Part shown: in pieces, positions 7,068-48,133 of the stretch | How the letters are laid out: the number at the start of each line of letters is the position of its first letter | How positions within the stretch are numbered: position 1 is the stretch's first letter | NCBI GenBank assembly: GCA_046726475.1 | Contig: JBKPAO010000009.1 | Location: 7,480-71,479 of the forward strand | Reading direction: 5' to 3' | From: Gemmatimonadota bacterium | GTDB taxonomy: Bacteria > Gemmatimonadota > Gemmatimonadetes > Gemmatimonadales > GWC2-71-9 | DNA: 64,000 nucleotides | Program-made: the position numbers and the translations under genes | Notes under the pieces: model-generated | Database searches by the model: none | Told to the model about the DNA's origin: nothing | What the model saw: the letters and a program-made list of their open reading frames with translations, nothing else

Positions 7068-7152
7068 CTCTTTTGCCATTCTCACCCTCACACTACCTGT
7101 CCGCCTGTCCACCTGCCTAAAAAAATCTGCGTGTCCGGCCGATAACCAATGC

Positions 7153-9450: not shown

Positions 9451-9451
9451 C

Positions 9452-9544: not shown

Positions 9545-9580
9545 GGCGGGAAAGACGGGAAGGGCGGGAAGGTAGCCGTG

Positions 9581-9697: not shown

Positions 9698-9729
9698 GGC
9701 CTTCTATTCCGCCTATCCCGTCCTTCCCG

Positions 9730-10248: not shown

Positions 10249-10342
10249 GATTCATCTCCTTGGTTGCAGTCAATGTGAATACGGGCGGAGCCTCGTCTCG
10301 CTACCTGCCGCTCCTTCCGCCTCTTCCGCCACTTCGCCCTTC

Positions 10343-11038
10343 CTACTTGCGCCCTCCTACCGGCGCGGCGCCTCCGGCCTTCGCCCGGAATCCGGCAGGA
10401 CGCTCCGGCTTCGCATCGGCGAGCGCCTTCTTGACCCCGGCGGCATCGAGGTCGGTGCCGTACACCGGAGTCGCCGGCTGCTGCCGCCACGACTCGTCGA
10501 GGCTTCCTGCGTCCACTCCGTCGAAGCCGAGCTGGTCCAGTAGCCGAATCACGACGTCCTTGGCGCGGCGGTCGTCGCCCGCGACCGGAAGGGCTATACG
10601 TCCCGCTGCGCCCTTGGGTTTCCCGTTCTCCAGCAAGTGTCGCGCGTAGATGTTGTTGAATGCCTTGACCACCGGACGACCGAGCTGCTGCGACGTCCAT
10701 TGCCCCTCGGCCATCCCGTCCTCAATTTCATCGATTCGGCCGTCGCGCTGCTGCGGATAGTAGTTGCCGGTGTCCACCACAACCACATCAGCGGGCACGC
10801 CGTCGAACAGGTCGGCCGGGAGCTTCGCGATGTTCTTCATTGGGATGGTCACGATGACGATGTCCCCTGCCCTTGCGGCGTCCCTGACGGTGACCGGCTT
10901 CGCCCCGGTCTCCTTCGCGAGAGCGTTCAGCGTCTCCGGCCCCCGCGAGTTGGCGATAGAGACGTCGTGTCCTAATGCAGTGAGGCGTCGTGCCAGGGTC
11001 CCGCCGATCTGGCCCGCGCCGATGATGCCGATTCTCAT
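10343..11038 (-). CDS. NADP oxidoreductase, F420-dependent family
   Basis: MRIGIIGAGQIG Rossmann motif, ANSRGPETL, DTGNYYP, VVKAFNNI. Confidence 0.9.
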   Translation of the reverse strand: MRIGIIGAGQIGGTLARRLTALGHDVSIANSRGPETLNALAKETGAKPVTVRDAARAGDIVIVTIPMKNIAKLPADLFDGVPADVVVVDTGNYYPQQRDGRIDEIEDGMAEGQWTSQQLGRPVVKAFNNIYARHLLENGKPKGAAGRIALPVAGDDRRAKDVVIRLLDQLGFDGVDAGSLDESWRQQPATPVYGTDLDAAGVKKALADAKPERPAGFRAKAGGAAPVGGRK

Positions 11039-11078
11039 GCCTCCTCCTTGATGATGCCGATTCTCATGCCTCCTCCTT
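11021..11078. repeat. Perfect 29-bp tandem duplication spanning RBS and start codon
   Basis: GATGATGCCGATTCTCATGCCTCCTCCTT at 11021-11049 and 11050-11078. Confidence 0.95.
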
Positions 11079-11167
11079 ATAGTGCTCCATTGCCGGCCGC
11101 CAGTGCTCGCGGCCATGTCGCAGTCTAAGCGGGTAGACGGGAAGGCGGGAAGGCGGGAAGGCGCTAG

Positions 11168-11358
11168 CCCTTGCCTCCACCGCGACCACGATGCAGACTA
11201 GACCACGGCGCTCGATCCGCGCCCAACCTCTTCGACCCTGCCCCAGCCGGGTCCTGGTGAGGCAAAGGGGGGCACACTCCCGGATCCATCTGATATTCCT
11301 TTGGTACGCTGCGGGCGTCGCCGCTGGGGGGTGAATCGCTCGCGGCACGACCAAAGGA
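11168..11358 (+). promoter_or_regulatory. Candidate structured leader with RBS-sequestering hairpin
   Basis: CCCTTGCCTCCACC pairs imperfectly with GGTGAGGCAAAGGG; TCCTTTGGT pairs with ACCAAAGGA, which contains the RBS. Confidence 0.5.
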
Positions 11359-11366
11359 CTCTAGCA

Positions 11367-12056
11367 ATGCCTACCAATAAAGACTTCAAGCGGCTGGTCC
11401 GCGGGCGCATGCGGAAGACCGGCGAGGCGTACACCACCGCCCGGGCTCATCTTCTCAAGCAGAAGCCGCGGCCCACTGACTCTACCTCTTCATCGCCTCA
11501 ACCAACCGATTACGCCAAGCTCGCTGGCCGAAGCGACGCGATTCTCAAGGAGAGGACCGGCTGCACCTGGGAGCGCTGGGTGAAGGCGCTCGACCGGTCG
11601 AAGGCGTACACCTGGCCGCACCGCGACATCGCGAAGCACGTGCAGGAGAGGTACAAGGTGCCGGGCTGGTGGGCGCAGACGGTGACGGTAGGGTACGAGC
11701 GGATCAAGGGGCTCCGTGCGGTGGGTCAGCGGCGGGACGGCACCTTCGAGGCCAATAAGAGCCGAACGTTCGCAGTGCCACTCGCTCGGCTCTATCAGGC
11801 ATTCGAGGATGGGCGGGTTCGCGCGCGCTGGCTTCCCAATGTGGATCTCACGGTGCGCACCGCGACCCGAGACAAGTCGATGCGGATCACCTGGCCCGAT
11901 CGAACGTCGCTCGAAGTCGGCTTCATGGCGAAGGGAAGCCGAAAGAGCCAGGTCGCGCTGCAGCACACGAAGCTGCCGGAGAAGGCCGCAGCGACCCGAA
12001 TGAAGCAGTACTGGGCGCAGCGGTTGGATGATTTGGCTGAGGTGTTGACTCAATAG
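11367..12056 (+). CDS. Hypothetical protein: basic N-terminal helix, DUF4287-like region, SRPBCC-like C-terminus
   Basis: KDFKRLVRGRMRKTGEAYTTAR; KERTGCTWERW; GWWAQTVTVGYER; VALQHTKLP. Confidence 0.75.
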   Translation: MPTNKDFKRLVRGRMRKTGEAYTTARAHLLKQKPRPTDSTSSSPQPTDYAKLAGRSDAILKERTGCTWERWVKALDRSKAYTWPHRDIAKHVQERYKVPGWWAQTVTVGYERIKGLRAVGQRRDGTFEANKSRTFAVPLARLYQAFEDGRVRARWLPNVDLTVRTATRDKSMRITWPDRTSLEVGFMAKGSRKSQVALQHTKLPEKAAATRMKQYWAQRLDDLAEVLTQ

Positions 12057-12090
12057 ACTTACGGCAGCTCGCGCAGCGGCCTTTCCCAGC

Positions 12091-12212
12091 GTAGCGAGAG
12101 AACCGAGTAAACTACCCTTCGCGGATCTCAACCGCACGGTAGGTTGGGAGGTTCTTCGCTACGCTCGGAACGACCTCTGGATGGACTTCCTCGCTTCGCT
12201 CGTGATGAGGTG
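12091..12212. repeat. Degenerate REP-like element, copy C
   Basis: GTAGCGAGAGAACC / GGTTCTTCGCTAC arms; right end GATGAGGTG is complementary to the CACCTCATC left end of copies A and B. Confidence 0.6.
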
Positions 12213-12327
12213 CCGTCTAAATTCAGACCGCCTGTCCGCCGGCGGCTCTCTGGGAGCGCTGGTGGATGGTTTGTTTTCCAAGGGCGAGCCAGGATCGCGA
12301 GCTGACAGCGAGGGAATGAGGTAATCT

Positions 12328-12708
12328 GTGCCATCAATCACTCACCACCTAACCTTTCGGCACACCGCGCGAGCGATGTTCCAGCACGGCGCGGCGCTCC
12401 TCTGTCTCGTCTTCATTGCGCTCGCGATCGGCATGTCGATCTATCACTGGGCTGCACGTCTGCCGTGGACCGACGCGTTCCTAAATGCGGCGATGATCCT
12501 GGGAGGGATGGGTCCGGTTGACCGGCTTTCGACCACTATGGCGAAATGGTTGGCGGGGTTCTACGCGCTCTTCTCCGGCCTGGTTTTCCTCGTGGTCGCC
12601 GGAGCGATGCTAGCTCCGCTGGTACACTCCGTGTTGCATCTGTTTCACGCCGAGCCACCCGAGCCTAAGAATGTTGGCCGGCCGAAGTCCCCAGGCTCGG
12701 CACACTGA
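12328..12708 (+). CDS. Small two-TM membrane protein with ion-channel pore-like segment
   Basis: TM - DAFLNAAMILGGMGP - TM arrangement. Confidence 0.7.
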   Translation: MPSITHHLTFRHTARAMFQHGAALLCLVFIALAIGMSIYHWAARLPWTDAFLNAAMILGGMGPVDRLSTTMAKWLAGFYALFSGLVFLVVAGAMLAPLVHSVLHLFHAEPPEPKNVGRPKSPGSAH

Positions 12709-12819
12709 CAGGAGATCACCGTGGCGCAGCACGACCGTATCCGCCAAGCACCAGCCGCTGACGGAACCAGGCTGCTTCGACCTACGTACGCATTGCCAGG
12801 CCTATCTCCAGGAAGACTC

Positions 12820-14895
12820 ATGAATATGGTTCGTACGACCTCTCGTTTCTGCATGATCGCCATAGCGTTAGCTAGCCGGCTTCCGCTGTCTGCTTCCGCC
12901 CAAACCGATCACGCAACCGATTCCACCGGGATCGATCTCACCGGTATGGATCGCTCGGTCAAGCCGGGCGACGATTTCTTCGCCTATTCCAACGGCACCT
13001 GGGTGAAGCAGACCGAGATTCCCGCCGACCGGAGCTCCTACGGCGCGGGCGCAATTCTGGGCGATCTCACCGACCGTCGAGTAGCCGATCTGATTCAAGC
13101 GGCAGCCAAGGGTTCTGCGCCAGGAGGCTCTGACCGCCGCAAGATCGGCGACTTCTACGCCAGCTTCATGGACAGCACGGGGATCGACGCGGCCGGTCTG
13201 AAGCCGCTCAAGCCGACGCTCGACTCCATTGCTGCCATCAAGGATCGAAAGGCGCTGGCCCACTTCCTCGGTTCAACCCTCCGGGCCGACGTCGACGCGC
13301 TCAACAACACCAACTTCTACACCGAGAACCTGCTCGGCCTCTGGGTCGCCCAAGACCTCGACGATCCAACCCAGTACTCCCCGTTCCTGCTCCAAGGTGG
13401 CCTCGGCCTGCCCGACCGGAGCTACTACGTCGACACTTCCTCGGCGATGGCCACGATCCGCTCCAAGTACCAGGAGCACGTGGCCGCGATGTTGGGACTC
13501 GCCGGGATCCCGGACAGCGCCAAGAAGGCCGCAGGGATCGTCCAGCTCGAGAGCAAAATCGCGAACGCGCACTGGACCAGAGAGGCGTCGGGCGATGTGA
13601 GCAAGGGCAACAATCACTGGAAGCGATCAGACTTCACCAGTAAGGCACCGGGTCTCGACTGGGGGACCTACTTTACCGCCGCGGGCCTGACGAAGCCGGC
13701 CCAATTCGTCGTGTGGCAACCCAGCGCCATCACCGGCGTCGCCGCACTCACAGACAGCGAGCCGCTCGATACCTGGAAGGACTACCTGACCTTCCACGCG
13801 ATTCAGTCGCGCGTCTCAGTCCTGCCGGGCGCTCTCTACCGGCAGTCCTTCTCCTTCTTCGGCCCGGTGCTGAGTGGAGCGCAGAAGCCGCGGGACCGCT
13901 GGAAGCGTGCGGTCACCGCCACCAACAACGCGCTCGGCTTTTCGGTCGGAAAGCTCTACGCCGCGCGCTACTTCCCGCCGGCGGAAAAGGCGCGGGCGGA
14001 GTCGATGGTCACCAACCTGATCGCCGCATTCCATGACCGGATCGACGGTCTGGCCTGGATGGCACCCGCCACCAAGAAGGAGGCCAAGGCCAAGCTCGCC
14101 GTGCTTAAGGTGGGCGTCGGCTATCCAGACAAATGGCCGGGGTATTCCGGCCTTCGGATCGTCAAAGGGGATGCCTACGGCAACATGGAGCGCGCCCGGC
14201 TCTACGAATACCACCGAGCGCTCAACCGCTTGGGCCAACCGGTGGACCGGAGCGAGTGGGTGATGACGCCGCAGACGGTGAACGCGGTCAACCTCCCGGC
14301 GATGAACGCGCTCAACTTCCCCGCCGCAATCCTAGGGCCGCCCTACTTCGACCCCAAACGCCCGATCGCCATGGACTACGGCGCCATCGGCTCGATCATT
14401 GGGCACGAGGTGAGTCACAGCTTCGACAACCAGGGCGCGTTGTTTGACTCCCGGGGACGGCTGCACAACTGGTGGACTCCAGCGGACTTCAAGCACTTCC
14501 AGGCGTCGTCGCAGCAGTTGGTGGAACAGTTCAACCAGTACCGGCCGTTCCCCGACCTCGCCATCAACGGCCAGCAGACCCTGGGCGAGAATATCGCCGA
14601 CGTGGCCGGCCTCGCCGCCGCCTACGACGCATTTCATCGCTCGCTGGGCGGGAAACCGGCGCCCGCCGTGGAGGGACTCACCGGCGACCAACAGTTCTTC
14701 ATCAGCTTCGCCCAGGGCTGGCGCACCAAGACGCGCGAACCTTCGATGCGGAACCTGATCCTGACCGATGGCCACGCGCCGGCACAGTATCGCGCCTCGA
14801 CCGTGAGAAACCTGGACCCCTGGTATGCCGCGTTCGATGTGAAGCCGGGAGAGAAGCTGTACCTGACGGAGGGCGAGAGGGTGAGGGTGTGGTAG
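12820..14895 (+). CDS. M13 family metallopeptidase (neprilysin/PepO-like)
   Basis: VKPGDDFF, VNA, GHEVSHSFD zinc motif, GENIAD; signal peptide; start codon uncertain. Confidence 0.95.
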   Translation: MNMVRTTSRFCMIAIALASRLPLSASAQTDHATDSTGIDLTGMDRSVKPGDDFFAYSNGTWVKQTEIPADRSSYGAGAILGDLTDRRVADLIQAAAKGSAPGGSDRRKIGDFYASFMDSTGIDAAGLKPLKPTLDSIAAIKDRKALAHFLGSTLRADVDALNNTNFYTENLLGLWVAQDLDDPTQYSPFLLQGGLGLPDRSYYVDTSSAMATIRSKYQEHVAAMLGLAGIPDSAKKAAGIVQLESKIANAHWTREASGDVSKGNNHWKRSDFTSKAPGLDWGTYFTAAGLTKPAQFVVWQPSAITGVAALTDSEPLDTWKDYLTFHAIQSRVSVLPGALYRQSFSFFGPVLSGAQKPRDRWKRAVTATNNALGFSVGKLYAARYFPPAEKARAESMVTNLIAAFHDRIDGLAWMAPATKKEAKAKLAVLKVGVGYPDKWPGYSGLRIVKGDAYGNMERARLYEYHRALNRLGQPVDRSEWVMTPQTVNAVNLPAMNALNFPAAILGPPYFDPKRPIAMDYGAIGSIIGHEVSHSFDNQGALFDSRGRLHNWWTPADFKHFQASSQQLVEQFNQYRPFPDLAINGQQTLGENIADVAGLAAAYDAFHRSLGGKPAPAVEGLTGDQQFFISFAQGWRTKTREPSMRNLILTDGHAPAQYRASTVRNLDPWYAAFDVKPGEKLYLTEGERVRVW

Positions 14896-36779: not shown

Positions 36780-37862
36780 ATGTCCACTGCCGGTCTCCGC
36801 GCGAGTATCATCGCATCCAACCTGCTCGAGCTTCCACCCGATGACGCTCGGGAGCAAATCGCGAACTGGGTCGCCGCGCGGCAGCTCCCTCCCTACCGCA
36901 CCAACCAGATCGTTCGGCGGCTCTGGAACGCACCGATCGGCAGCTGGACCGAGGCCACTGAGCTGCCGATGACGCTCCGTAACGAGCTGGACACTTCGTT
37001 CCCGCTGCCTCGCCTTCGGATGGATACCCGGCAGCAATCGGCCGATGGCACTCGTAAATATCTCTGGCGCCTGGATGACGGCGAAGCGATCGAAACGGTA
37101 TTGATTCCCTCGGGTGGACGCCGGACTCTCTGCATCTCTTCGCAGGCGGGCTGCGCGCTCGGCTGCACGTTCTGCGCCACCGGTCGTATGGGATTTCGGC
37201 GGAACCTGACCGCATTCGAGATCGCGGGACAGGTCCGCGAGATCGTCCTGAAGAACGTCGACGACAAGCCGACCAACATCGTCTTCATGGGAATGGGTGA
37301 ACCGCTGCTCAACTGGCCGGCGGTGAACACCGCGCTCAGCATCCTGAACGACGATCTGGGCTTTGAAATCGGTGCCCGACACATCACCCTGTCGACCGTA
37401 GGAATTCTTCCCGGTCTCGCGGAGTTCGCGAAACGGCCGGAGCAGTTCCGCCTGGCTATTTCCCTTCATTCCCCGACCTCAGCGCAGCGGCGCGGCATCA
37501 TGCCGATTGAGAAGAAGTACGATCTCGAGGCGGTGCTCCGGGCTGCCGAGGCGTTCCGCAGGCGGGTGACGTTCGAGTATGTGATGATCGGCGGCGTCAA
37601 CGACAGCGATGCGGACGCGGACCGGCTGGCCAAGCTGGCTCGGCGGCTGGGGGCGTTGGTCAACATTCTGCCGTTGCACCCGGGAGGCGCCCCGGATCTC
37701 ACCCCTACGACATCGGCTCGGATCAAGGCATTCGCCGGCCGGCTTCGGAACCAAGGCGTCGAGGCGACGGTGCGGCGGAGCCGAGGCCTCGATATCGATG
37801 CCGCGTGCGGGCAATTGCGCGTTGAAATGGAGAAGAAGAGCAGGCGGGAAACAAAAGCGTGA
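36780..37862 (+). CDS. rlmN: 23S rRNA m2A2503 methyltransferase RlmN
   Basis: CISSQAGCALGCTFCATG, MGMGEP, AACGQL. Confidence 0.96.
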   Translation: MSTAGLRASIIASNLLELPPDDAREQIANWVAARQLPPYRTNQIVRRLWNAPIGSWTEATELPMTLRNELDTSFPLPRLRMDTRQQSADGTRKYLWRLDDGEAIETVLIPSGGRRTLCISSQAGCALGCTFCATGRMGFRRNLTAFEIAGQVREIVLKNVDDKPTNIVFMGMGEPLLNWPAVNTALSILNDDLGFEIGARHITLSTVGILPGLAEFAKRPEQFRLAISLHSPTSAQRRGIMPIEKKYDLEAVLRAAEAFRRRVTFEYVMIGGVNDSDADADRLAKLARRLGALVNILPLHPGGAPDLTPTTSARIKAFAGRLRNQGVEATVRRSRGLDIDAACGQLRVEMEKKSRRETKA

Positions 37863-37976
37863 GCGGGAACAAGAAGAGTGTAAGCGGGGAGGCCAATGCT
37901 TCACAGGTTTCCGGGGCCGCCACGCGGTGATTGCGCCCGCTTACCGCTCACGCTGTTCCTTTCCCGCTCACGTTTT
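37844..37976. repeat. Imperfect inverted repeat between convergent rlmN and ppc
   Basis: AAAAGCGTGAGCGGGAA...GTAAGCGGG versus CCCGCTTAC...TTCCCGCTCACGTTTT. Confidence 0.65.
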
Positions 37977-40778
37977 CTAGCCCGTGGCTCCAAATCCCGC
38001 CGCAATGGTATTGATCGACAGCAATAGCGCGGACAGCTGCTCCTCCTGGCTCTTGTCACTGCCCGATTCGCGAAACCGGCGGAGCAGCTCGATCTGTTGG
38101 CGGCTGACCTGATTGATGGTTGGCAGTCGACGGGCCAGTCTCCGGCGGAATCGAGGGTAGCGTTCGACCAGCTCGCCGCCCCCGCTGATGCGGAGCACCG
38201 CCTCGACCGTGCGGTGATACTCCTCCACCACCAGCGCTAAAATCGAGGTTCTGGCAGCAGCATTGGGCACCAGCTCGGCGTACTCGCGCGCAATGCCCAG
38301 ATCGACGTAGCTCAGCGTCTTCTCCACCTCATCCACGATCAGCCTAAACAGCCGGGACTCGGTGAACATCCGGTCGAGCAGGGCCGCGCCCCGTTGGCCG
38401 CGAACCTCCAGGAACGTCAGGATGCCGCTGCCAACGCCGTACCAGCCAGGGACGAAGTGGCGATTCTGAGACCAGGCAAACACCCAGGGAATCGCCCGGA
38501 GGTCGCTGAGCGACCGTGCACCGAAGCGCCGGGCCGGACGGGAGCCGAGGTTCAGCAGCGAGATCTCTTCCAGCGGGCTCGCGGCCTGATAATACGGCAG
38601 CAGGTCGGGGTGATCGATCAACTGCCGATACGACGCCTGCGCAGCACCGGAAAGAGCCTCCATCGCCTCGTCGAATTCGGCGGTCGGCACCAGCGCCTTT
38701 TCCCGTTCCGACTTGAGGGTATGCTCGACCACGCTCGCCGCGAGCAGCTCGAGCTGATACTGCGCCGTTCCCCGATTGGCGTACTTGAACGAAACGACCT
38801 CGCCCTGCTCCGTGATTCGCATGCGACCCTGGATCGAGCCGGCAGGCTGCGCGGCAATCGCACGGCCGGTTGGGGCGCCTCCCCGGCTCACCGAGCCGCC
38901 GCGGCCGTGGAAAAACGCAATGGGCACGCCGGCTTCCTTTCCCACCCTGGTCAGCTTGATCTGCGCCTTGCTGAGCTCCCAGTTTGAAGTAAGAAATCCG
39001 CCGTCCTTGTTGGAGTCAGAGTAGCCGATCATCACCTCCTGCACTCCACCCTGACTCCGGACGCTGCGGCGCACCAGCGGCACCGCCAGAAGCTCGCGCA
39101 TGATCGCCGGCGCGCGCTGGAGATCTTCGATAGTCTCGAACAGGGGAACGATGGGAAGGGTGCAGCTCTCGACCCCGGCAGTGTCAGCAAACAGACCGGC
39201 GTTCTTGGCGAGGAGGTAGGCGCCCAGCACATCGCTCGTGCTCCGAGTCATGCTGAGAATGAAGCTGCCGAACGCCTCGCGATCGATCTCTTCTCTGAGA
39301 CCGCGAACCAACTCGAACATTCCCTGCGTTTCCGCCGAGTCGTCCGGTAACTTCGGTCGGTCTTCCCCAGGAGTGAGCGGGCGCGCCAGCTCGGCCGCAA
39401 GCCACTGCCGCCACTTCTCGGAGGTCTGATCCGGAGCCTCACGCGTGGTCTCGCTGTCCGCCTGCCCGCCCGTCCGCCCGTCCACTTGCCTCCAGAGATC
39501 CGCCAGCGCGGCGTTGAGTTTGGTGGTGTTCTCCCGGAGATCGAGCCGTACGGTGCTGAATCGGAATGCTTCCACTTCCCGGCGCACCGGCCGCACCAGC
39601 ATCGCTCCGATCGAGGTACTTCCTGCCGCGCTCAGCTGCTCCTCGATGAGACGGAGATCGCTGGCCAGGGCATCAGGGGATTGATATCCTGCCGGGCCCA
39701 CCGCGACCTGACCCCGTTCCGCCGAAGCGATCATGGTATCCACCCGGCCGATCATGCAGGCGAGGAACTGGCGAAATACCTCGCCCGGATTCCGCGCCGC
39801 GATCCCCTCGCCGTCGCCACTGGCCTCGAGCTCCCGGGTAAGTGCGGCACGAAACGCCTCCGATACCGGGATCGCTCGCTCGGTGATGCTGAGCGCGCGG
39901 ACCAGCTCCGCCAGGCGCCTGCGATAACGGCGGAGTGCTGACAGACGGTTTTCCAGCAGTGTGCTTCGCGTGACCTCGTTGGTAACGAACGGGTTCCCAT
40001 CGCGGTCGCCGCCAACCCACGAGCCGAACTGCAGGAAGGCAGGAACCTGGAAGCGCTCGCCAGGATAGAAGGAGGCTAGGGCGCGCTCCAACTTGTCGAG
40101 CAGATCGGGGACTGCCTCGAATAGAGTCTCGTTGAAGAAGTGGAGTCCCCAGAATACCTCTTGCGGTACCGTTGGCTTCGCCAGCCGGAGCTCTCCAGTA
40201 TTCCAGAGCAGCTCTATTTCGTTTCGCAATCCATCGATCAGGGACTGCCGCTCGCGCGGAGTCCATCGGGGAGACTCCAGGTCGACCAGACGGCGATAGA
40301 TCCTCCGGTGCTTCTCCAACACCGTCACACGCTTGGCCTCGGTGGGATGGGCGGTGATCACCGGTCGGACCCGCAGGACTTCTAGCAAGGATCGGATCTC
40401 GTCGGCCGGTACCTTCGAGGCAGCCGCACCGGAGATGACGTTCGCGAATGTTCCGCGAAGTTGCTCGTGCCCTCGCTCCGCCTCGATCTGTCGGCGGCGA
40501 CGCATCGCCGCATTCTGTTCGGCGATGCTGAGCAGTTGGAACCAGAGCCCCTGCACCTGAAGAGTGCGGGCCAGCACTTCCGGACTGAGCTCCGACACCG
40601 ATCGCTCACCCCGCAGGACCTCGGCGACCTCAGGCTGTCGATCCCGGACCAGCCCGAGCAGGAGCGACGACAGCAGCTCAACGACTTCATTGGCGTAGGC
40701 GGCCGCGCTGGCGGCGGCCGGGTCGGCGGACTCCGGGAGGGAAACCGGGGAGAAAGGTTCGAGCAGGGTCTGGGTCAC
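37977..40778 (-). CDS. ppc: Phosphoenolpyruvate carboxylase
   Basis: VITAHPTE, GGDRDGNP, MIGYSDSNKDGG, FHGRGGSVSRGG, LRAIPWVF. Confidence 0.98.
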   Translation of the reverse strand: MTQTLLEPFSPVSLPESADPAAASAAAYANEVVELLSSLLLGLVRDRQPEVAEVLRGERSVSELSPEVLARTLQVQGLWFQLLSIAEQNAAMRRRRQIEAERGHEQLRGTFANVISGAAASKVPADEIRSLLEVLRVRPVITAHPTEAKRVTVLEKHRRIYRRLVDLESPRWTPRERQSLIDGLRNEIELLWNTGELRLAKPTVPQEVFWGLHFFNETLFEAVPDLLDKLERALASFYPGERFQVPAFLQFGSWVGGDRDGNPFVTNEVTRSTLLENRLSALRRYRRRLAELVRALSITERAIPVSEAFRAALTRELEASGDGEGIAARNPGEVFRQFLACMIGRVDTMIASAERGQVAVGPAGYQSPDALASDLRLIEEQLSAAGSTSIGAMLVRPVRREVEAFRFSTVRLDLRENTTKLNAALADLWRQVDGRTGGQADSETTREAPDQTSEKWRQWLAAELARPLTPGEDRPKLPDDSAETQGMFELVRGLREEIDREAFGSFILSMTRSTSDVLGAYLLAKNAGLFADTAGVESCTLPIVPLFETIEDLQRAPAIMRELLAVPLVRRSVRSQGGVQEVMIGYSDSNKDGGFLTSNWELSKAQIKLTRVGKEAGVPIAFFHGRGGSVSRGGAPTGRAIAAQPAGSIQGRMRITEQGEVVSFKYANRGTAQYQLELLAASVVEHTLKSEREKALVPTAEFDEAMEALSGAAQASYRQLIDHPDLLPYYQAASPLEEISLLNLGSRPARRFGARSLSDLRAIPWVFAWSQNRHFVPGWYGVGSGILTFLEVRGQRGAALLDRMFTESRLFRLIVDEVEKTLSYVDLGIAREYAELVPNAAARTSILALVVEEYHRTVEAVLRISGGGELVERYPRFRRRLARRLPTINQVSRQQIELLRRFRESGSDKSQEEQLSALLLSINTIAAGFGATG

Positions 40779-41749
40779 ACGACGCGGTCGCGGAGCGGAG
40801 CGCCGCTGAAGAACAGTCGCAGATTCTCGACTGCTCGCCGTCCCATGGCGATGCGGGTCTCGTGAGTCGCGCTTCCGAGATGGGGGAAGAGCACCACGTT
40901 TTCCATGGTGAGCAGCTCCGGGGTGATCTCCGGCTCCCGCTCGTAAACGTCGAGGCCGGCGCCGGCGATCGTGCCGTCCCCAAGCGCTTCCACCAGGGCT
41001 GCCTCATCCACGATGTCGCCGCGTGCGGTGTTGACGAGGAACGCGTTCCGGCGCATTCGAGCCAACCGCTCCCGATTCATCAAGTGCCGGGTCTCCGGGC
41101 TCGCGGGACAGTGGAGGGAAACGAAGTCCGACTCCTCCAGCACCTGCTCCAGCGCATCTCGCGGCTCCGCTCCCAGCGCAGCCGCTTCTCCGGGCGAGGG
41201 GGGATAGGGGTCGTGGAAGATCACCCGCATTCCGAAACCGTGATGCGCGCGTTTCGCGACCGCACGGGCGATCCGCCCCATTCCAACCAGGCCAAGCGTC
41301 TTGCCACTTACCTGAGTGCCCAGCATATGCGTCGGGCGCCACCCAGTCCAGGCACCGCAGCGGACATGGCGCTCGCCTTCGCCGGCTCGGCGACTGACCA
41401 TGAGTAGCAGCGTCATCGCGATGTCGGCCGTGGCCTCGGTGAGAACATCGGGTGTGTTCGATACGGCCACCCCCCGAGCCTTGGCCGCATCGGTGTCGAT
41501 GTGATTGAAGCCGACGCCGAAGTTCGCGAGCAGGCGGGCACGGAGTGGCTCCGCGCTGAGAACCTCGGCGCTGATCCGATCGGTCACGGTGCAGAGCAGC
41601 GCGTCGGCGTCGCGGAGTGCTTCCTGGAGACCGGCGGCTCCGAGCGGACGATCGTCGCGATTGAGTCGGGCGTCGAAATCTCGGCTGAGCTCCTCCTCGA
41701 CGACTCCGGGAAGGCGCCGGGTAACTACCACGGTGGGACGCGCCATCAC
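40775..41749 (-). CDS. hprA: Hydroxypyruvate/glyoxylate reductase (D-glycerate dehydrogenase)
   Basis: NTPDVLT, GMGRIA, VNTARG, DVYEREP, HLGSAT; serine-cycle context. Confidence 0.8.
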
Positions 41750-42660
41750 TTCACGCCGACCTTCTTCCGCGACGAGCGCTTGGAGAGGGCCGCCGCGATC
41801 GTCGAACCGAGCTCGGCCGGGCTGGGAGCCACGGTGAGACCGGCGGAACGCATGATCTCGGCCTTCTCCGCCGCGGTGTCACCAAAGGCGGAAATGATGG
41901 CACCGGCGTGCCCCATCCGCCGTCCCTTCGGGGCGGTGAGCCCCGCGACATATCCGATCACCGGTTTACTCATGTTTTTCTTAACGAACAGCGCGGCTTC
42001 GGCCTCCTGGGGACCGCCGATCTCGCCGATCATCATGACCGCCTCGGTCTCAGGATCCTCCTCGAACAGCTTCAGCATATCCACGAACGAGCTGCCGTTG
42101 ATGGGATCGCCGCCGATCCCGACGCTGGTAGTCTGTCCGATGCCGAGCGCGTTCATCTGAGCCGCGGCCTCGTATCCGAGCGTCCCCGACCGCGTGACCA
42201 ACCCGACGTGCCCCCTGGAATAGATGTGGCCAGGCATGATCCCCAGCATGGCCCGGCCGGCGCTGATGATGCCGGCGCAGTTGGGACCGATTAATGTGGT
42301 CCGCCGCTCCTTGGGAAAGCGGAACAGGTACCGCTTCACCATCATCATATCCTGCGCTGGAATTCCGTCGGTGATGGTGCAGATGAGACGAATTCCGGCG
42401 TTGGCGGCCTCCATGATGGAATCGGCGCAGAACGCCGCTGGGACAAAGATGATGCTGGCAGTGGCCCCCGTTGCCTTCACTGCCTCCCGGACGGTGTTGA
42501 ATACCGGGCGATCCAGGTGCCGGGTTCCTCCTTTGCCAGGGGTCACGCCACCGACGACGTTGGTGCCGTAGGCGATCATCTCCTTGGCGTGGAACGTAGC
42601 TTTGTCCCCGGTGAACCCCTGTACTACGACGCGGGTGGTTTCATCGACGAGAATGCTCAT
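41746..42660 (-). CDS. mtkB: Malate--CoA ligase alpha subunit (SucD-like)
   Basis: [22 protein letters not shown] phospho-His; follows mtkA. Confidence 0.85.
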
Positions 42661-43889
42661 GGCTGTCCATTACCTCCGGCGACGCCAGGCGAAGAACGCT
42701 TTGCGGCGGGTGAACGGGTGGCACGGTAGGTGTTGAGCGCTTTGACAACCCGCTCCGCTGCCTCGGAGAGCGTATCTGCCGTGATGATCGGGAGACCGCT
42801 GTCCTTGAGAATCTTTCTTCCCTCTTGGAAGTTGGTCCCCGCCAGGCGCACCACCAGGGGGATCTCGAGTTGGGTCTCTCGCGCCGCCTGTACCACGCCC
42901 TGAGCGACCCAATCGCAACGGTTGATGCCGGCAAAGATGTTGACCAAAATCGCGCTGATCTTCGGATCGGAGAGCACCAACCGAAAGGCAGCAGCGACTC
43001 GGTCGGGCGAGGCGCCCCCGCCAACGTCGAGGAAGTTTGCCGGATGACCGCCCGCGTGCTTGATCATGTCCATCGTCGCCATCGCCAGACCGGCCCCGTT
43101 GATGATGCAGCCGATGTCTCCCTCGAGGGCGACATAGTTGAGGCCATACTCCGCGGCCTGCGCCTCCCGGGGATCTTCCTCAGCGTAGTCCCGCAGCTCG
43201 CTGACGTTGGGACGACGGAACATCGCGTTGTCATCGAAGGTCATCTTACAGTCGAGGGCTAGTACCTGTCCGTCGCCGGTCACCACCAGCGGATTGATCT
43301 CGACCATGGTCGCGTCGAGATCACGAAAGGCACGATAGGCGCCGAGGAGGGTGGTGACCGCACGACTCACCTGGGCCGGCGCCAGTCCCAGCCCGAAGGC
43401 GATCTCCCGTGCCTGAAAGGCAGACATGCCGATCGCCGGCTCGACCACTTCGCGGAGAATCGACTCGGGCGCGCTCTGAGCGATCTCCTCAATCTCGATT
43501 CCTCCCTGAGGGTGGGCCACAATTATGATCCGCTCGGTCTTGCGGTCCAGCACGAGCCCGACGTAGAGCTCCCGCTCAATTGGAACCGCAGCCTCGATGT
43601 AAAGCCGGTGCACCACCCTTCCCTCCGGACCGGTTTGATGGGTGACCAGCTTTCGGCCGAGCAGGCCCTTCGCCGCCTGGCGAACTTCATCTTCGCTGGA
43701 GCAGAGCTTGATCCCACCGGCTTTGCCGCGAGCTCCGGAGTGGATCTGAGCCTTCACGGCCCAGCGCGCCCCGCCGATCTCCGAGGCGCGGTAAACCGCC
43801 TGCTCGGGACTGTAGGCCACGCCACCGCGCGGGATGGCAACGCCGAAGCCGGCGAGAAGCTCTTTGGCTTGGTATTCGTGGATGTCCAT
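42657..43889 (-). CDS. mtkA: Malate--CoA ligase beta subunit
   Basis: [41 protein letters not shown] are MtkA-type rather than SucC-type (GGRGKAGG, NIFGGI). Confidence 0.88.
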
Positions 43890-43968
43890 GGTTCGTTCCG
43901 GAAAGCGGAGATTGTCGCTCCAGGAGGTCTAGAGTCGAAAGTCTAGTCAAGACTTTACGGAGATCGAG

Positions 43969-44946
43969 CTAGTGTACACCCACCTTTGACTCTTGACCCT
44001 TGACTCTCGACATTTTTCCAATCGCCTCATCCATATCCACCACGTTCTGCGCCATCCGCGCCGAGGCGGCATCGATCATGCGCCCATCGAGCTGCGCAGC
44101 GCCACGACCCTCCCGAGCTGCTTGCTCCAGCGCCTCGAGAATCCGCCGAGCCCGCTCGACTTCACGCGCCGGAGGAGTGAACACCTCGTTGGCGAGGGCG
44201 ATTTGTGATGGGTGGATCGCCCATTTCCCTTCGATGCCGAGCGCCGCCCCCCGCCGCGCAGCAGCGGTGTATCCGTCGGGATCTTTAAAGTCGCCGAAGG
44301 GACCGTCGATCGGCCGCAGACCGTAGGCCCGGCACGCAACGACCATGCGGGACAATGCGGCGTGCCACTGATCACCTGGATAATCGGGATTGAGACCGCC
44401 GATGTTCACCGTGCGTGCCCGACAGCTCGCGGCGTAATCCGCCACTCCGAAGTGCATGGCCTCGAGGCGGCGGCTGGATTGGGCAATCGCCTCCACGTTG
44501 GCCATTCCCAGAGCAGTCTCGATCAGTACATCGATTCCGATCCGGTGCGGAATACCACGGGCTTCTTCAATCTGGGTCAGCAGCGCGTCGACTAGGTAGA
44601 CGTCTGCCGGCACTCCAACCTTGGGGATAAGCACCGTGTCGAGGCGATGGCCTGCCTGCTCCACCACGTCCACCACGTCCCGATACATATAATGAGTATC
44701 GATACCGTTGATTCGGACAGAGATGGTCTTACCGCGCTCGCGCCAATCGTGCTCCAGCAAAGCCGCGATGACATTGAGGCGAGCCTGCGGCTTGTCCGCC
44801 GGGGCAACGGCGTCCTCAAGGTCGAGGAAGATATAGTCGGCTTCTCCGTCGAGCGCCTTCCGGAACATGGGAGGCTGCGAGCCGGGCACCGCCAGCTCGC
44901 TCCGCTGCAGACGGGGGTGCGACGGCTCGTAGCGGGTGTGACTCAT
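43969..44946 (-). CDS. mcl: Malyl-CoA lyase (CitE family)
   Basis: RLQRSELAVPGS, YMYRDVVDVVEQAG, MHFGVADYAAS, GKWAIHPSQ. Confidence 0.92.
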   Translation of the reverse strand: MSHTRYEPSHPRLQRSELAVPGSQPPMFRKALDGEADYIFLDLEDAVAPADKPQARLNVIAALLEHDWRERGKTISVRINGIDTHYMYRDVVDVVEQAGHRLDTVLIPKVGVPADVYLVDALLTQIEEARGIPHRIGIDVLIETALGMANVEAIAQSSRRLEAMHFGVADYAASCRARTVNIGGLNPDYPGDQWHAALSRMVVACRAYGLRPIDGPFGDFKDPDGYTAAARRGAALGIEGKWAIHPSQIALANEVFTPPAREVERARRILEALEQAAREGRGAAQLDGRMIDAASARMAQNVVDMDEAIGKMSRVKGQESKVGVH

Positions 44947-46202
44947 CGAGCGGCGCCGGCGGTAGCCTTCCTGGATACCGTCGACTGGGACTGCGTCTCG
45001 GGAGCTCGGGGCGGGAGCTCCCGTTTCGGGAGCGCGGCCGCGGTGCTGCGCCAGTACTCCTGCGCCGCGCCGACGCCGGTTCCCAGCTCTATGTCGATCC
45101 CGACGTCTCGCATGGCCATTTCGGACCCAGCGATGGCACCCAACAGCATCAGCTCGTTGAGGTCTCCCAGGTGACCGATGCGAAAGAGCTTCCCCGCCAT
45201 GCGAGCGAGCCCTGCTCCGAGGGCGAGGTTATAGCGGCGATAGGCCACATCGATGACTTCGGCTCCGTTGTACCCCGCCGGGACCATGATGGCGGTGACG
45301 GTGTCGGAGTTCCACTTGGGGGCGCGAGCGCAGAGCTCCAGTCCCCACTCCTTCACCGCCCGGCGGGTTCCTTCGGCCAGTCGGTGGTGCCGGGCGAACA
45401 CGTTCTCCAGGCCCTCTTCGAGCAGCATGTCGATCGATTCCCTGAGACCATATAGCATGGGAAGCGACGGCGTGTAGGGGAAGTAGCCGGTCGCATTCGC
45501 CTTCCGCATGTCGCCGAAATCGAAGAAGACCCGCGGCAGCTTGGCTTGATCGTAGAGCGCGAGCGCCTTTTGGCTGGCGCAGACGATGCCGAGACCGGCG
45601 GGCAACATGAAGCCCTTCTGAGAGCCGGTGACTGCGAGATCGACTCCCCATTCGTCCATCCGGAAATCGATGCTCGCAATCGAGCTGACGCCGTCTACCA
45701 TCAGCAGCGCGGGATGCTTGGTATCATTGAGCGCTCGCCGAATCCCGGCGACATCGCTGGTGACCCCGGTGGCAGTTTCATTATGAGTGAAGAGCACTGC
45801 CTTGATCCGCTGTCCTTTGTCCCCTGCGAGCGCCTCCTGGTAGCGCTCGATGGGCGCACCCTCGCCCCACTCTACATCGATAATTTCCACTTGAAGCCCA
45901 AACCGCTGCGCCATGTCGATCCAGAGATGACTGAACATCCCGAAACGCGCGGCAAGCACCCGATCTCCCGGTGACAGCGTGTTCGAGAGGGATGCTTCCC
46001 ACGCGCCCGTCCCGCTGGCCGGGAAGATGAACGCCTGACCCGATGTGGTCTTGAAGATTTTCTTGAGATCCTCGAGCACGGGCGCGGCGAGCGCCGGGAA
46101 GTCGGAGGAACGATGATCTTCCATCGCGCGGTGCATGGCACGGAGAACCCGATCGGGCACGTTGGTAGGCCCGGGAACGAAGAGGAAATTGCGGCCTGCC
46201 AT
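44943..46202 (-). CDS. sga: Serine--glyoxylate aminotransferase
   Basis: GRNFLFVPGPTNVP, HNETATG, GSQKG PLP lysine, GYFPYTP, FRIGHLG. Confidence 0.92.
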   Translation of the reverse strand: MAGRNFLFVPGPTNVPDRVLRAMHRAMEDHRSSDFPALAAPVLEDLKKIFKTTSGQAFIFPASGTGAWEASLSNTLSPGDRVLAARFGMFSHLWIDMAQRFGLQVEIIDVEWGEGAPIERYQEALAGDKGQRIKAVLFTHNETATGVTSDVAGIRRALNDTKHPALLMVDGVSSIASIDFRMDEWGVDLAVTGSQKGFMLPAGLGIVCASQKALALYDQAKLPRVFFDFGDMRKANATGYFPYTPSLPMLYGLRESIDMLLEEGLENVFARHHRLAEGTRRAVKEWGLELCARAPKWNSDTVTAIMVPAGYNGAEVIDVAYRRYNLALGAGLARMAGKLFRIGHLGDLNELMLLGAIAGSEMAMRDVGIDIELGTGVGAAQEYWRSTAAALPKRELPPRAPETQSQSTVSRKATAGAAR

Positions 46203-46328
46203 GGGAACCTCTCGATGCGGGGTAGGACGGTACGAGTAGGATGAGCCAGGAGTCTAGAGCCCACGATTCGAGTCTAGGGGAGGGGCCCACCTGAGACTCT
46301 TACCTGCTGCGACCATACGAATAACACT

Positions 46329-46346
46329 TTGTGAACTTTTTCACAA
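46329..46346. promoter_or_regulatory. Perfect palindrome matching the Rex operator (also CRP-like)
   Basis: TTGTGAA-CTTT-TTCACAA in the divergent sga/glycerate kinase intergenic region. Confidence 0.75.
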
Positions 46347-46355
46347 GAGATTCTT

Positions 46356-47678
46356 TTGACTAACGTCCATCCGGCGGACGCTCAATCGCTACTGGCCGAT
46401 CTCTACTCTGCGGCCACAACCGCAGTTGCGCCAGGACCCGGCCTCAGAGCGCGGCTCCAGAGCCTGGGCCCCGACAATGCAGCCAACTCGATCTGGGTCA
46501 TCGCACTAGGCAAGGCAGCCGTCCCAATGGCCGACGCTGCAGTGGAGCATCTCCGAGCCTCAGGACGTCGTCTCGCGGGTGGCCTTGTCATTGGCCCCGC
46601 GGTGAAGGGATCAGAAGGCTCGCCACTCCCCTATCGACAGGGAGATCACCCCGAACCGGGGCCGGCATCGTTTGCAGCGGCGGAAGCTCTTGCCCGAGTA
46701 GTAGCCCAAATTTCTCCGGAGGCCGAGGTGTGGGTACTCCTGTCAGGGGGTACGACCAGCTTGGTAGGGGCACCGGAGTCCGGGCTGACGACGGAGGAGC
46801 TCTCCGGGATCTACGCGCTTCTCCTCGGCTCTGGTCTGGAGATCACCGCCATGAACCGAATTCGGAAGCGATTCTCCCGATGGGGAGGAGGTAAGCTCGC
46901 CCGGGCGTTGGCTCCCGCCAGGGTTAGGGTCTACATCGTATCAGACGTGATCGGGGATGACCTGGCCTCGATCGGCTCGGGCCCCTGCGTACCTGATCCA
47001 ACCACTGCCGCCGAGGTGCGTCACCTCTTGGAGAGCTCGGGGCTGTGGTCGCGGATCCCGGCATCGGCTCGCACGATCATCCACTCAGCCGAGACGGGAT
47101 CGAGCCCCGAAACGCCTAAGCCAGGAGATGAGGCGTTCGTGAACGTCAGTTCGGAGGTGATTGCGAGCAATCACCTGGCACTCGAGGCCGTCCGCAACAG
47201 AGCAGCCGAGCTGGGTATGGCCCCGTTGCTGATCGAGGTGCCCATCGTAGGCGAAGCAGCGGCAGTTGGGACTCGGATCGCTTCCGAGCTGCTGGGGAAC
47301 TGCAATCGCTCAGCCGGGCAACCGGCGGCACGCTGCTTCATCTGGGGTGGTGAGACCACGGTGACATTGGGTGATGGATCGGCTGGGCTGGGTGGCCGGT
47401 GTCAGGAGCTGGCTCTCGCGGCAGCACGGGTTTTTAACCAGGCCGGTGAGTCGCTCGCGTTGCTGGCCGCCGGCACGGATGGACGAGACGGACCTACCGA
47501 CGCCGCAGGAGCAATCGTAGACGCGGGCACATGGAGCGCCATCGCACGGGGAGGACGGGATCCCGCCAGCGACCTAGCCTACCATAACGCGTACTACGCA
47601 CTTGATGCGGCCGGTGCGCTGCTGCGGCCAGGACTCACCGGGACCAACGTCATGGATGTGGTGATAGGGATCTGTTAG
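46356..47678 (+). CDS. gck: Glycerate 2-kinase (MOFRL/TtuD family)
   Basis: GKAAVPMA, LLSGG, SDVIGD, IGSGP, GGETTV, GTDGRDG, TGTNVMD. Confidence 0.92.
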   Translation: MTNVHPADAQSLLADLYSAATTAVAPGPGLRARLQSLGPDNAANSIWVIALGKAAVPMADAAVEHLRASGRRLAGGLVIGPAVKGSEGSPLPYRQGDHPEPGPASFAAAEALARVVAQISPEAEVWVLLSGGTTSLVGAPESGLTTEELSGIYALLLGSGLEITAMNRIRKRFSRWGGGKLARALAPARVRVYIVSDVIGDDLASIGSGPCVPDPTTAAEVRHLLESSGLWSRIPASARTIIHSAETGSSPETPKPGDEAFVNVSSEVIASNHLALEAVRNRAAELGMAPLLIEVPIVGEAAAVGTRIASELLGNCNRSAGQPAARCFIWGGETTVTLGDGSAGLGGRCQELALAAARVFNQAGESLALLAAGTDGRDGPTDAAGAIVDAGTWSAIARGGRDPASDLAYHNAYYALDAAGALLRPGLTGTNVMDVVIGIC

Positions 47679-48133
47679 GGGTGCAGTGCCAGCTTAGGTC
47701 GGAAGTCATCTCCCAAAATCACGCTGACATCTACCCGTCGCAGCGTGTCGATGTCGATTCTTATCCTTCCTCCCCCCAACGCCGCCGACACATAACGTGC
47801 TCGGCCGGGGTCTCCTCGACGGACCAGCACCTGGGTAAGCGCCGAGAGTGAGTCCGCGTTGCCGAGGAAGACTACATCGAGGCCATGTCCCCGTAGCAGC
47901 CGCGTGGCGGCGCGCGCGGCACCCTGGCGCCGGGTGCCGTTGAGCACTTCCACCATGATCCGCTCGCTAGGCCGGGCAGGAGCGGCAGTGGCGGCGGCTG
48001 ACGGCTCAGGCTGACTGTGCCGAAACAGAAGAGCTCCCGTAGCAGCCATCAAAATCGCCGCGGCTAGCGCGATGCCGCGCCAGTGGCGACGAGACTGTTC
48101 CAGAATCTCACGGTAGGCTCGAGTATGGGCCAT
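47675..48133 (-). CDS. LytR C-terminal domain protein
   Basis: TM then VEVLNGT...G.A and DVSVILGDDF; start uncertain. Confidence 0.8.
   Translation of the reverse strand: MAHTRAYREILEQSRRHWRGIALAAAILMAATGALLFRHSQPEPSAAATAAPARPSERIMVEVLNGTRRQGAARAATRLLRGHGLDVVFLGNADSLSALTQVLVRRGDPGRARYVSAALGGGRIRIDIDTLRRVDVSVILGDDFRPKLALHP

Follow-up and report, generated by a model that had tools for sequence, protein, structure and literature searches.

The question raised by this locus is what a compact set of serine-cycle genes does in a bacterium of the phylum Gemmatimonadota. The window, that is, the whole stretch of DNA analysed (64,000 nucleotides (nt) of contig JBKPAO010000009.1, assembly GCA_046726475.1), carries six co-oriented open reading frames on the minus strand at 37977-46202, in the order sga-mcl-mtkA-mtkB-hpr-ppc, and a glycerate 2-kinase gene, gck, at 46356-47678 on the plus strand. 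The cluster is very probably an operon for the assimilatory half of serine-cycle methylotrophy in a soil Gemmatimonadales bacterium. Taking the most upstream starts in the list of reading frames, neighbouring genes overlap by 4 nt at four of the five junctions (sga/mcl, mtkA/mtkB, mtkB/hpr, and hpr/ppc). The only junction without overlap is mcl-mtkA, with a gap of 79 nt. gck diverges from sga across an intergenic region of 153 bp (46203..46355). The layout given in the initial annotation, with co-oriented, mostly overlapping genes and a divergent gck, is thus borne out, and judged from its gene calls the cluster is a genuine, compact serine-cycle operon.

mtkA (42657..43889, minus strand) is predicted to encode the beta subunit of malate--CoA ligase (malate thiokinase). 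Its product scores 698.1 bits on the malate--CoA ligase beta model NF010647, above the cut-off of 604, and 543.8 bits on the SucC model NF001913. The NF010647 cut-off is passed in none of 14 control genomes. The protein is 42-45% identical to SucC of the phylum versus 67-75% to proteobacterial MtkA. A ligase tree was built from 81 MtkA and 11 SucC sequences, the latter from the phylum and with the SucC of this genome among them. MtkA and SucC separate with a support of 100 in the Shimodaira-Hasegawa-like approximate likelihood ratio test (SH-aLRT). The MtkA of the window lies among Gemmatimonadales sequences, in a clade with MtkA of Methylobacterium, Methylorubrum, Methylocapsa, and Methyloversatilis. 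The genome's own SucC, a second and separate gene split over two contig ends (C158:7685-8638 and C34:1-315), groups with SucC of congeners. By these comparisons the ligase is MtkA, not SucC, and activity on malate is predicted. The MtkA-type ligase proposed in the initial annotation is thus confirmed, and a ligase that groups with SucCD and is the only copy in the genome is not what was found. A separate observation concerns family f10 of the phylum sample introduced below (e.g., G011:C268:10566-11729 and G005:C125:38841-40004; loci L126 and L127). The sole SucC-like gene found there encodes a protein scoring 480-505 bits on the MtkA model, below its cut-off. This protein is 52-53% identical to the MtkA of the window, midway between SucC and MtkA, and groups with SucC on a long branch in the tree.

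The products of the other genes are assigned as follows. mtkB (41746..42660, minus strand), which overlaps the end of mtkA by 4 nt, has the CoA_binding and Ligase_CoA domains of a malate--CoA ligase alpha subunit. MtkB scores 438.2 bits on the SucD model, the sole model available for the alpha subunit, and is 66-81% identical to the product of the gene adjoining mtkA in proteobacterial loci. mcl (43969..44946, minus strand; Pfam HpcH_HpaI) is predicted to encode malyl-CoA lyase. Its best solved relatives are 5ugr, 'Malyl-CoA lyase/beta-methylmalyl-CoA lyase' (421.1 bits), and 4l9y, 'Malyl-CoA lyase' (311.6 bits), versus at most 117 bits for citrate lyase beta. Mcl passes no NCBIfam equivalog; the sole malyl-CoA lyase model is haloarchaeal, and Mcl scores 134 bits on it against a cut-off of 500. 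ppc (37977..40778, minus strand), the last gene of the operon, encodes a phosphoenolpyruvate (PEP) carboxylase by its Pfam PEPcase match (805.2 bits). Its score on NF000584, 777.9 bits, falls just below the cut-off of 815. gck is assigned as a glycerate 2-kinase of the MOFRL family (Pfam DUF4147, 189 bits; MOFRL, 111 bits). Gck scores 172 and 152 bits on archaeal glycerate 2-kinase models, below their cut-offs, and is 32-38% identical to Gck encoded next to sga in Methylocapsa, Methylocella, and Aminobacter loci.

The two enzymes that handle glyoxylate and hydroxypyruvate bear on more than one reading of the cluster. sga (44943..46202, minus strand; Pfam Aminotran_5), the first gene of the operon, is predicted to encode a class V serine--glyoxylate aminotransferase. 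The closest solved relative of Sga is 6pk1, 'Serine--glyoxylate aminotransferase' (489.6 bits), followed by AGXT-type enzymes at about 160 bits. Sga is 58-71% identical to the products of sga-position genes in Methylobacterium, Methylocapsa, and Methyloversatilis loci. Its closest NCBIfam model is BhcA, an aspartate--glyoxylate aminotransferase, on which it scores 634.6 bits, below the cut-off of 650 by a small margin. Sga thus appears to be of the serine--glyoxylate aminotransferase type and outside the BhcA equivalog, and its substrate preference is predicted. hpr (40775..41749, minus strand; Pfam 2-Hacid_dh and 2-Hacid_dh_C) is predicted to encode a hydroxypyruvate/glyoxylate reductase of the GRHPR type. 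Among solved structures its product is matched by glyoxylate reductases (5aov at 262 bits), by D-glycerate dehydrogenase 1gdh (233.6 bits), and by human GRHPR (216 bits). Hpr is 30-36% identical to Hpr of Methylobacterium-type clusters and 55-67% identical to Hpr of clusters with the same gene order as the window.

Genes for the oxidation of one-carbon (C1) compounds are found elsewhere in the assembly, which comprises 3.14 Mb in 172 contigs and is 94.3% complete and 0.08% contaminated. Two dehydrogenases of the pyrroloquinoline quinone (PQQ) methanol/ethanol family pass the TIGR03075 cut-off of 480, with about 691.5-691.7 and 649 bits. The first is closest to the solved lanthanide XoxF 6oc5 (751 bits), with WDYDG aligned to WDFDG. 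The second Asp of this motif is taken here to be the mark of a lanthanide XoxF. The gene is accompanied by a XoxJ-type gene (TIGR03871, 259.9 bits against a cut-off of 212) and a cytochrome c gene. The family score, the Asp two residues past the catalytic Asp, and the XoxJ-type and cytochrome c neighbours are therefore all present. PqqC scores 297.9 bits (cut-off 240). Formaldehyde oxidation through tetrahydromethanopterin (H4MPT) is represented by Fae (242.5 bits, cut-off 118), with genes for a Mpt_N dehydrogenase (Mtd-like), FhcA (662 bits), FhcB, the start of FhcC, and FhcD (426-443 bits) alongside it, and by Mch (422.5 bits), encoded at C30:54494-55423, about 17 kb from xoxF. Genes for FolD, GlyA, and enolase are also found, as is an Mdh-type gene assigned by an Ldh_1_C family match only (109.5 bits). 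With these the serine-cycle set of the genome is complete: GlyA, Sga, Hpr, Gck, enolase, Ppc, an Mdh-type enzyme, MtkAB, and Mcl. The pmoA family, a sign of methanotrophy, has no match in the genome, a result of little weight because the control matched in no genome either.

The initial annotation had inferred C1 assimilation and held that the window alone did not show it. The whole genome strengthens that inference through XoxF, Fae, Mch, Fhc, FolD, and GlyA, and a genome devoid of C1 oxidation or methylene-tetrahydrofolate supply genes, which would have spoken against it, is not what is seen (the Mtd-like gene is also present). Of the genes that it named as worth seeking, xoxF, PQQ genes (pqqC), glyA, and folD were found and ftfL was not in the assembly. 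Methylotrophy is well supported by this gene content, and methanol would be the likely substrate.

Several observations accompany these genes. On contig C30 (L017:4028-11442), a GHMP-kinase-family gene, possibly one of H4MPT biosynthesis, precedes xoxF. After xoxF come the xoxJ-type gene, the cytochrome c gene, and genes for a pentapeptide-repeat/DUF3280 and a beta-propeller protein. Three further PQQ dehydrogenases are encoded at C78:6313-8073, C74:20973-22664, and C58:4376-6361. One is the second XoxF-like enzyme (649 bits), which has its own cytochrome c and is cut by a contig end. Another, with 441 bits, does not reach the methanol/ethanol-family cut-off, and neither does the third, a membrane glucose/quinate-type enzyme, reach its own. 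Contig C46 carries both glyA and the enolase gene (746-1876 and 7507-8358), separated by about 5.6 kb.

Put together, the predicted enzymes would form the following route. Methanol would be oxidised in the periplasm by the lanthanide-type XoxF dehydrogenase. Formaldehyde would be bound by Fae and oxidised to formate by the H4MPT route (Mtd-like enzyme, Mch, and FhcABCD), and formate would enter the folate pool through FtfL and FolD. GlyA would then make serine from methylene-tetrahydrofolate and glycine. Serine and glyoxylate would be converted to hydroxypyruvate and glycine by Sga, hydroxypyruvate reduced to glycerate by Hpr, and glycerate phosphorylated to 2-phosphoglycerate by Gck. Enolase, encoded elsewhere, would produce PEP, Ppc oxaloacetate, and Mdh, also encoded elsewhere, malate. 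MtkAB would activate malate to malyl-CoA, and Mcl would cleave malyl-CoA to glyoxylate and acetyl-CoA. The flux is presumed to run in this direction. Acetyl-CoA would most likely be returned to glyoxylate and C4 units by the tricarboxylic acid (TCA) cycle and a short, non-canonical enzyme of the isocitrate lyase (ICL) family. The resulting cycle would be the ICL-plus variant, not the ethylmalonyl-CoA variant.

The distribution of the cluster was examined in a phylum sample of 301 genomes (300 evenly chosen genomes and this one). The MtkA cut-off is passed in 51 of them, all in two families of one order, and in four more MtkA is cut by a contig end. In the genus of the window, MtkA passes in 16 of the 17 other genomes. 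For Fae, 63 of the 301 genomes are above the cut-off: 49 of the 51 MtkA-positive genomes versus 14 of the other 250, with MtkA cut by a contig end in three of these 14. Across the phylum, the cluster and the H4MPT pathway clearly go together. Note that the tallies include unpublished genomes, namely G057 (positive for MtkA, Fae, and the ICL-like protein), G181 (positive for canonical ICL), and the negatives G157 and G097, and that unpublished G303 is part of the genus samples for ftfL and ICL. Dropping the unpublished genomes shifts each count by at most one.

How glyoxylate is regenerated is the next question. For ccr and aceA, to which the initial annotation had pointed, the answer was negative: neither Ccr nor a canonical ICL is found above cut-offs in the genome, and a short ICL-family protein is present instead. 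The best Ccr score (TIGR01751) is 104 bits against a cut-off of 378.55, and this cut-off is passed in none of the 18 genomes of the genus and in none of the 301 genomes of the phylum sample. Canonical ICL passes in 67 of the 301 genomes and in none of the 18 genus genomes (none of the 17 congeners). The ICL-family protein has 378 amino acids and is encoded at C112:40292-41428 (L021:7292-8428, minus strand). It resembles solved ICLs (124 bits) more than methylisocitrate lyases (about 50 bits). In alignment with solved ICLs it keeps SGWQ, D.EAGFGG, H.E.Q, CGH, ARTD, and N.SPS, among which are presumably the catalytic and substrate residues. It has RTCGH in place of KKCGH, followed by an insert of seven residues. 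Among the 120 matches listed, its homologues are from close Gemmatimonadales relatives only, with 84-95% identity, and are named 'isocitrate lyase' or 'isocitrate lyase/PEP mutase family protein' in their sources. For the same protein, a Chloroflexota cluster from Atlas is a lead only.

Orthologues of the ICL-like protein occur in 38 of the 301 genomes, all in the family of the window, and never together with canonical ICL (38 and 67 genomes, overlap 0). The 51 MtkA-positive genomes divide into 33 with the ICL-like form, 14 with canonical ICL, and 4 with neither. The ICL-like protein was also considered as a universal partner of the cluster. This was rejected: 18 of the 51 MtkA-positive genomes have no ICL-like form. 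The pattern is consistent with the short form having replaced ICL in one sub-lineage, perhaps in a single event. It supports, without proving, a predicted ICL-plus serine cycle. Glyoxylate is regenerated not by the ethylmalonyl-CoA pathway but most likely by this ICL-family enzyme, which fails the curated cut-offs. Since the phylum sample lacks an ethylmalonyl-CoA pathway, C1 growth would depend on an ICL-type reaction.

Several points weigh against an assimilatory operon for C1 growth and have to be set beside this evidence. FhcB scores 252 bits, below its cut-off of 327.8, and a contig end truncates FhcC. The ICL-like protein scores 168 bits on NF011645 (cut-off 562) and 160 bits on TIGR01346 (cut-off 275.9), so closure of the cycle on C1 compounds alone would depend on a non-canonical enzyme of predicted activity; four of the 51 MtkA-positive genomes have neither ICL form. 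Fae is absent from two of the 51, and the co-occurrence counts overstate the support, as related genomes are not independent samples. The 20 holders of the stretch that are listed, from 16 studies, are all DNA metagenomes, with no RNA run among them. Sga lies near BhcA and Hpr belongs to a glyoxylate-reducing family, so that from sequence a role in two-carbon (C2) metabolism is possible. Lastly, ftfL was not found in the 94.3%-complete assembly, and its presence is inferred from congeners.

In the case of ftfL the congeners are informative. The gene is present in every one of the 17 congeners sampled. Two short ftfL loci of congeners, used as queries at the DNA and protein levels, gave no match in this genome. 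In the congener G307 (comparison locus L131, G307:C25:19000-38900; ftfL stretch at 3301-14182), ftfL lies in an 11-kb stretch with rbfA, truB, ribF, secD, secF, tatD, ridA, murI, and an lpxH-like gene, and none of the genes of this stretch has a match in the present assembly. The genes flanking the stretch in G307 match the extreme ends of contigs C28 and C110. Because the whole stretch, with its essential genes, is missing and its flanks are the ends of C28 and C110, ftfL would lie in an assembly gap, and its loss was rejected as an explanation. Absences in this genome are to be read with this gap of about 11 kb in mind.

The C2 role could be the principal one. The cluster would then serve the assimilation or detoxification of glycolate or glyoxylate, Sga and Hpr turning glyoxylate and serine into glycerate and Gck feeding glycolysis, and the C1 genes would serve only for energy or formaldehyde detoxification. 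This is in line with the glyoxylate reductases being the best solved relatives of Hpr, with Sga nearly reaching the BhcA cut-off, and with the lack of RNA runs among the holders listed. The 14 Fae-positive genomes without full-length MtkA indicate that C1 oxidation is possible without the cluster. However, ppc, mtkAB, and mcl would be useless in a simple glycerate route and are nevertheless translationally coupled with sga and hpr. The C2 role is also opposed by the concentration of Fae in MtkA-positive genomes, and by the 58-81% identity of the enzymes to those of cultured serine-cycle methylotrophs. As the main function of the cluster it is improbable, and assimilation of C1 units remains the preferred function.

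The 153-bp region between sga and gck contains a predicted operator. The palindrome TTGTGAACTTTTTCACAA at 46329..46346 resembles a Rex operator and matches the consensus TTGTGAANNNNTTCACAA at 14 of 14 specified positions. This consensus is as printed for Streptomyces avermitilis, a Gram-positive bacterium (PMC5355995). From the site it is 9 nt to the gck start and 126 nt to the sga start. In the 3.14-Mb assembly only two perfect sites are present, against 0.00 expected for independent and identically distributed (iid) bases. The second perfect site is 30 nt upstream of the ICL-like gene. Five sites with one mismatch are found (iid expectation 0.07), at C41:18779, C108:4996, C123:61287, C59:10963, and C154:5576. 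One of these is 8 nt upstream of the rex gene itself, whose product scores 247 bits on NF003995 (cut-off 126), and the others are upstream of the gene for the F1 alpha subunit, at the atpI-atpB-atpE-atpF operon, at a cupredoxin gene, and upstream of a sugar transferase gene. Together these sites would make up a small predicted Rex regulon. Rex classically targets rex itself and ATP synthase operons (PMC5355995), and the sites at these genes validate the motif in this organism. Near the site at the cupredoxin gene there are also a divergent gene without an assigned name and an extracytoplasmic function (ECF) sigma/anti-sigma pair.

The site upstream of the ICL-like gene is kept, with 13-14 of 14 positions matching, in all 20 genomes checked, which represent four genera. 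At the cluster, 11 congeners show 14/14 matches in five, 12/14 in five, and 10/14 in one, and in six genomes of other genera the best match is only 7-8/14. A Rex site as a trait of all serine-cycle Gemmatimonadales was consequently rejected, as none of the six genomes from other genera has the cluster site. When the region was aligned with six close relatives (seven loci), the sole conserved intergenic block was the Rex operator with an adjacent TGnTA(T/C) motif. This motif lies just past the operator and, by inference from its sequence, resembles an extended -10 element for the sga direction. The putative operator TTGTGAACTTTTTCACAA may control sga, gck, or both. A direct repeat, GAGTCTAG (46250-46257 and 46270-46277, 20 nt spacing), is conserved in none of 18 related loci and was dropped. 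Scans of 37700-47900 for consensus sigma-70 promoters and terminators gave two and six sites, versus 1.1 +/- 1.1 and 4.8 +/- 2.4 in shuffles; none falls in an intergenic region and the scans are uninformative.

The perfect Rex sites at both the cluster and the ICL-like gene suggest, tentatively and with considerable doubt, a redox-tied serine cycle in this genus, in the form of an ICL-plus variant closed by a non-canonical enzyme. If so, the NADH produced by C1 oxidation would act through the NADH-sensing repressor Rex to induce assimilation and glyoxylate regeneration at the same time. In the literature collection searched, no paper brings the redox-sensing Rex and the serine cycle together. 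The present sites agree with the Rex regulon of Streptomyces avermitilis in the operator consensus and in the rex gene and ATP synthase operons, which carry one-mismatch sites here. They differ from it in that serine-cycle and ICL-family genes are not among the targets named in the accessible part of that report (PMC5355995).

The same two operators, the only perfect ones of the assembly, can also be read in favour of a glyoxylate bypass that would support growth on acetate or fatty acids. Mcl and MtkAB would then run mainly in reverse as a substitute for malate synthase, glyoxylate from the ICL-like enzyme and acetyl-CoA giving malyl-CoA and then malate. In other bacteria the condensation catalysed by Mcl runs in both directions. 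The search for malate synthase gave no match in this genome, and only 8 of the 17 sampled congeners have one, which also fits such a bypass; its absence from a 94%-complete assembly is nevertheless weak evidence. sga, hpr, gck, and ppc would be superfluous for it, and the co-occurrence with Fae points to a C1 role. The bypass is compatible with a serine cycle, and as the main use of the cluster it has a slim chance, a little below that of the C2 role. The serine cycle in the assimilatory direction is again preferred.

The position of the cluster in the genome indicates whether it belongs there. On one side it is flanked by the housekeeping genes for PhoH, AspS, and a radical-SAM protein, and on the other by those for LytR_C and by panD, panC, and panB, so that the placement between core genes described in the initial annotation holds. 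The window is part of a 73-kb contig, and its G+C content is even (0.61-0.67). Among species-representative genomes, the best 28 MtkA matches are all from metagenome-assembled genomes (MAGs) titled Gemmatimonadales, Gemmatimonadaceae, Gemmatimonadota, or Gemmatimonadetes (92-73% identity), and proteobacterial MtkA comes next (75-67%). In 30 loci with such titles (L035-L062, L064, and L081) the genes that fall inside the locus have one and the same order in every case. The whole core from sga to ppc is contained in 17 of them, and gck is divergent and adjoins sga in 19. Eight loci (L038, L039, L041, L042, L048, L049, L053, and L056) share the flanks of the window on both sides, counted as panC or LytR_C at one end and the radical-SAM gene or aspS at the opposite end. 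Because the order is constant and these eight loci share core flanks on both sides, the cluster is native to Gemmatimonadales and stands at a fixed chromosomal site. The arrangement is not due to chance, and vertical inheritance is supported by the eight loci with equal order and flanks. The affiliation to Gemmatimonadota, which had been called probable, agrees with both the MtkA matches and the common flanks.

A mis-binned or recently transferred proteobacterial fragment would be the opposite case. It could draw on the proteobacterial MtkA sequences of up to 75% identity, on the same gene order in gammaproteobacterial MAGs, and on a deep branching order of the MtkA groups that the tree does not settle. 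It is countered by the location of the cluster inside the 73-kb contig, between aspS/radical-SAM gene and panBCD, with equal flanks in eight Gemmatimonadales loci, by the even G+C content, and by the presence of MtkA in 16 of 17 congeners. Furthermore, no proteobacterial sequence is nested inside the Gemmatimonadales groups of the MtkA tree. A foreign origin of this kind can hardly be credited. Note that MtkA of the proteobacterial loci with the same gene order forms one group (99 SH-aLRT) beside the Gemmatimonadales groups and that the base of the MtkA clade is a polytomy. Because of this polytomy, neither a donor nor a direction of transfer between Proteobacteria and Gemmatimonadota can be named.

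The initial annotation had described the gene order as unlike the alphaproteobacterial one, which is correct for Methylobacterium and not for all Alphaproteobacteria. Methylobacterium and Methylorubrum clusters have the same enzyme set as the window, with identities of 67-71% for MtkA, 72-76% for MtkB, 59-61% for Ppc, 62-65% for Mcl, and 58-71% for Sga. In Methylobacterium, Methylorubrum, and Hansschlegelia the order is sga-hpr, a gap of about 2 kb, and mtkA-mtkB-ppc-mcl, with mcl last. The gap between hpr and mtkA in Methylobacterium is presumably occupied by mtdA-fch. Paraburkholderia has the Methylobacterium order without the gap, and in Methyloversatilis and Methylocapsa the opposite strand carries hpr and sga. 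The hpr of Methylobacterium and Methylorubrum is of another lineage (31-36% identity), and over all these clusters the identity to the hpr of the window is only 30-36%. Methylobacterium-type organisms regenerate glyoxylate by the ethylmalonyl-CoA pathway and have the regulator QscR, whereas in the genome studied here no Ccr is found and a Rex operator is predicted. The order sga-mcl-mtkA-mtkB-hpr-ppc is also seen in six 'Gammaproteobacteria' MAG loci (L067, L068, L069, L080, L084, and L090). The alphaproteobacteria Aminobacter aganoensis and Pseudaminobacter soli (L097 and L099) have it with gck in place of ppc, co-oriented at the end and not divergent. Hpr of these loci of the same order belongs to the lineage found in the window, with 57-67% identity; the loci differ from the window in phylum and in flanks.

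Serine-cycle methylotrophy in soil Gemmatimonadetes as such is already published, and its novelty had been overrated in the initial annotation. Butterfield et al. (2016) described XoxF, PQQ synthesis, the H4MPT pathway, the folate-to-serine steps, and a 'malate-intermediated' serine pathway in soil Gemmatimonadetes MAGs, and in the proteome of a grassland soil they found no protein more abundant than a Gemmatimonadetes XoxF (PMC5103831). Voutsinos et al. (2024) reported XoxF3 systems in Gemmatimonadetes and stated that most XoxF-bearing genomes 'contain the entire serine pathway' (PMC10875860). The present genome has the same combination of XoxF-type dehydrogenase, PQQ, H4MPT, and serine pathway as those MAGs (PMC5103831, PMC10875860). 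In the MAGs of Butterfield et al. the H4MPT genes adjoin xoxF (PMC5103831); here a GHMP-kinase gene and mch are on the xoxF contig. A figure legend of the same paper names a different glycerate kinase for Gemmatimonadetes (PMC5103831). According to a 2026 preprint, the MAG of a proposed Gemmatimonadota methanotroph lacks sga and hprA (10.64898/2026.02.02.703227). The operon order, the fixed site, the lack of Ccr and canonical ICL, and a regulator are not described in the accessible parts of PMC5103831 and PMC10875860.

As a headline, a serine cycle in Gemmatimonadota thus leaves existing knowledge unchanged. What the window adds is a well-resolved copy of the assimilation operon, which occupies a constant chromosomal position in much of one family and follows the H4MPT pathway through the phylum. 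The predicted Rex control and the ICL-like partner appear to be new details. They bear on how uncultured methylotrophs may balance oxidation and assimilation. Gemmatimonadota are abundant in soils, where plant methanol is a large carbon flux.

A subgroup of the Gemmatimonadales loci differs in placement. Three long loci from Gemmatimonadales MAGs (L051, L052, and L060), which belong to one MtkA subgroup, keep the six-gene core, and neither gck nor the core-gene flanks of the window were detected within 3-7 kb of it. The cluster is in a different neighbourhood in this subgroup. One of the three, L052, is from 'Gemmatimonadetes bacterium AG8', a MAG out of grassland soil of the kind studied by Butterfield et al. 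It carries sga-mcl-mtkAB-hpr-ppc with an MtkA 80% identical to that of the window.

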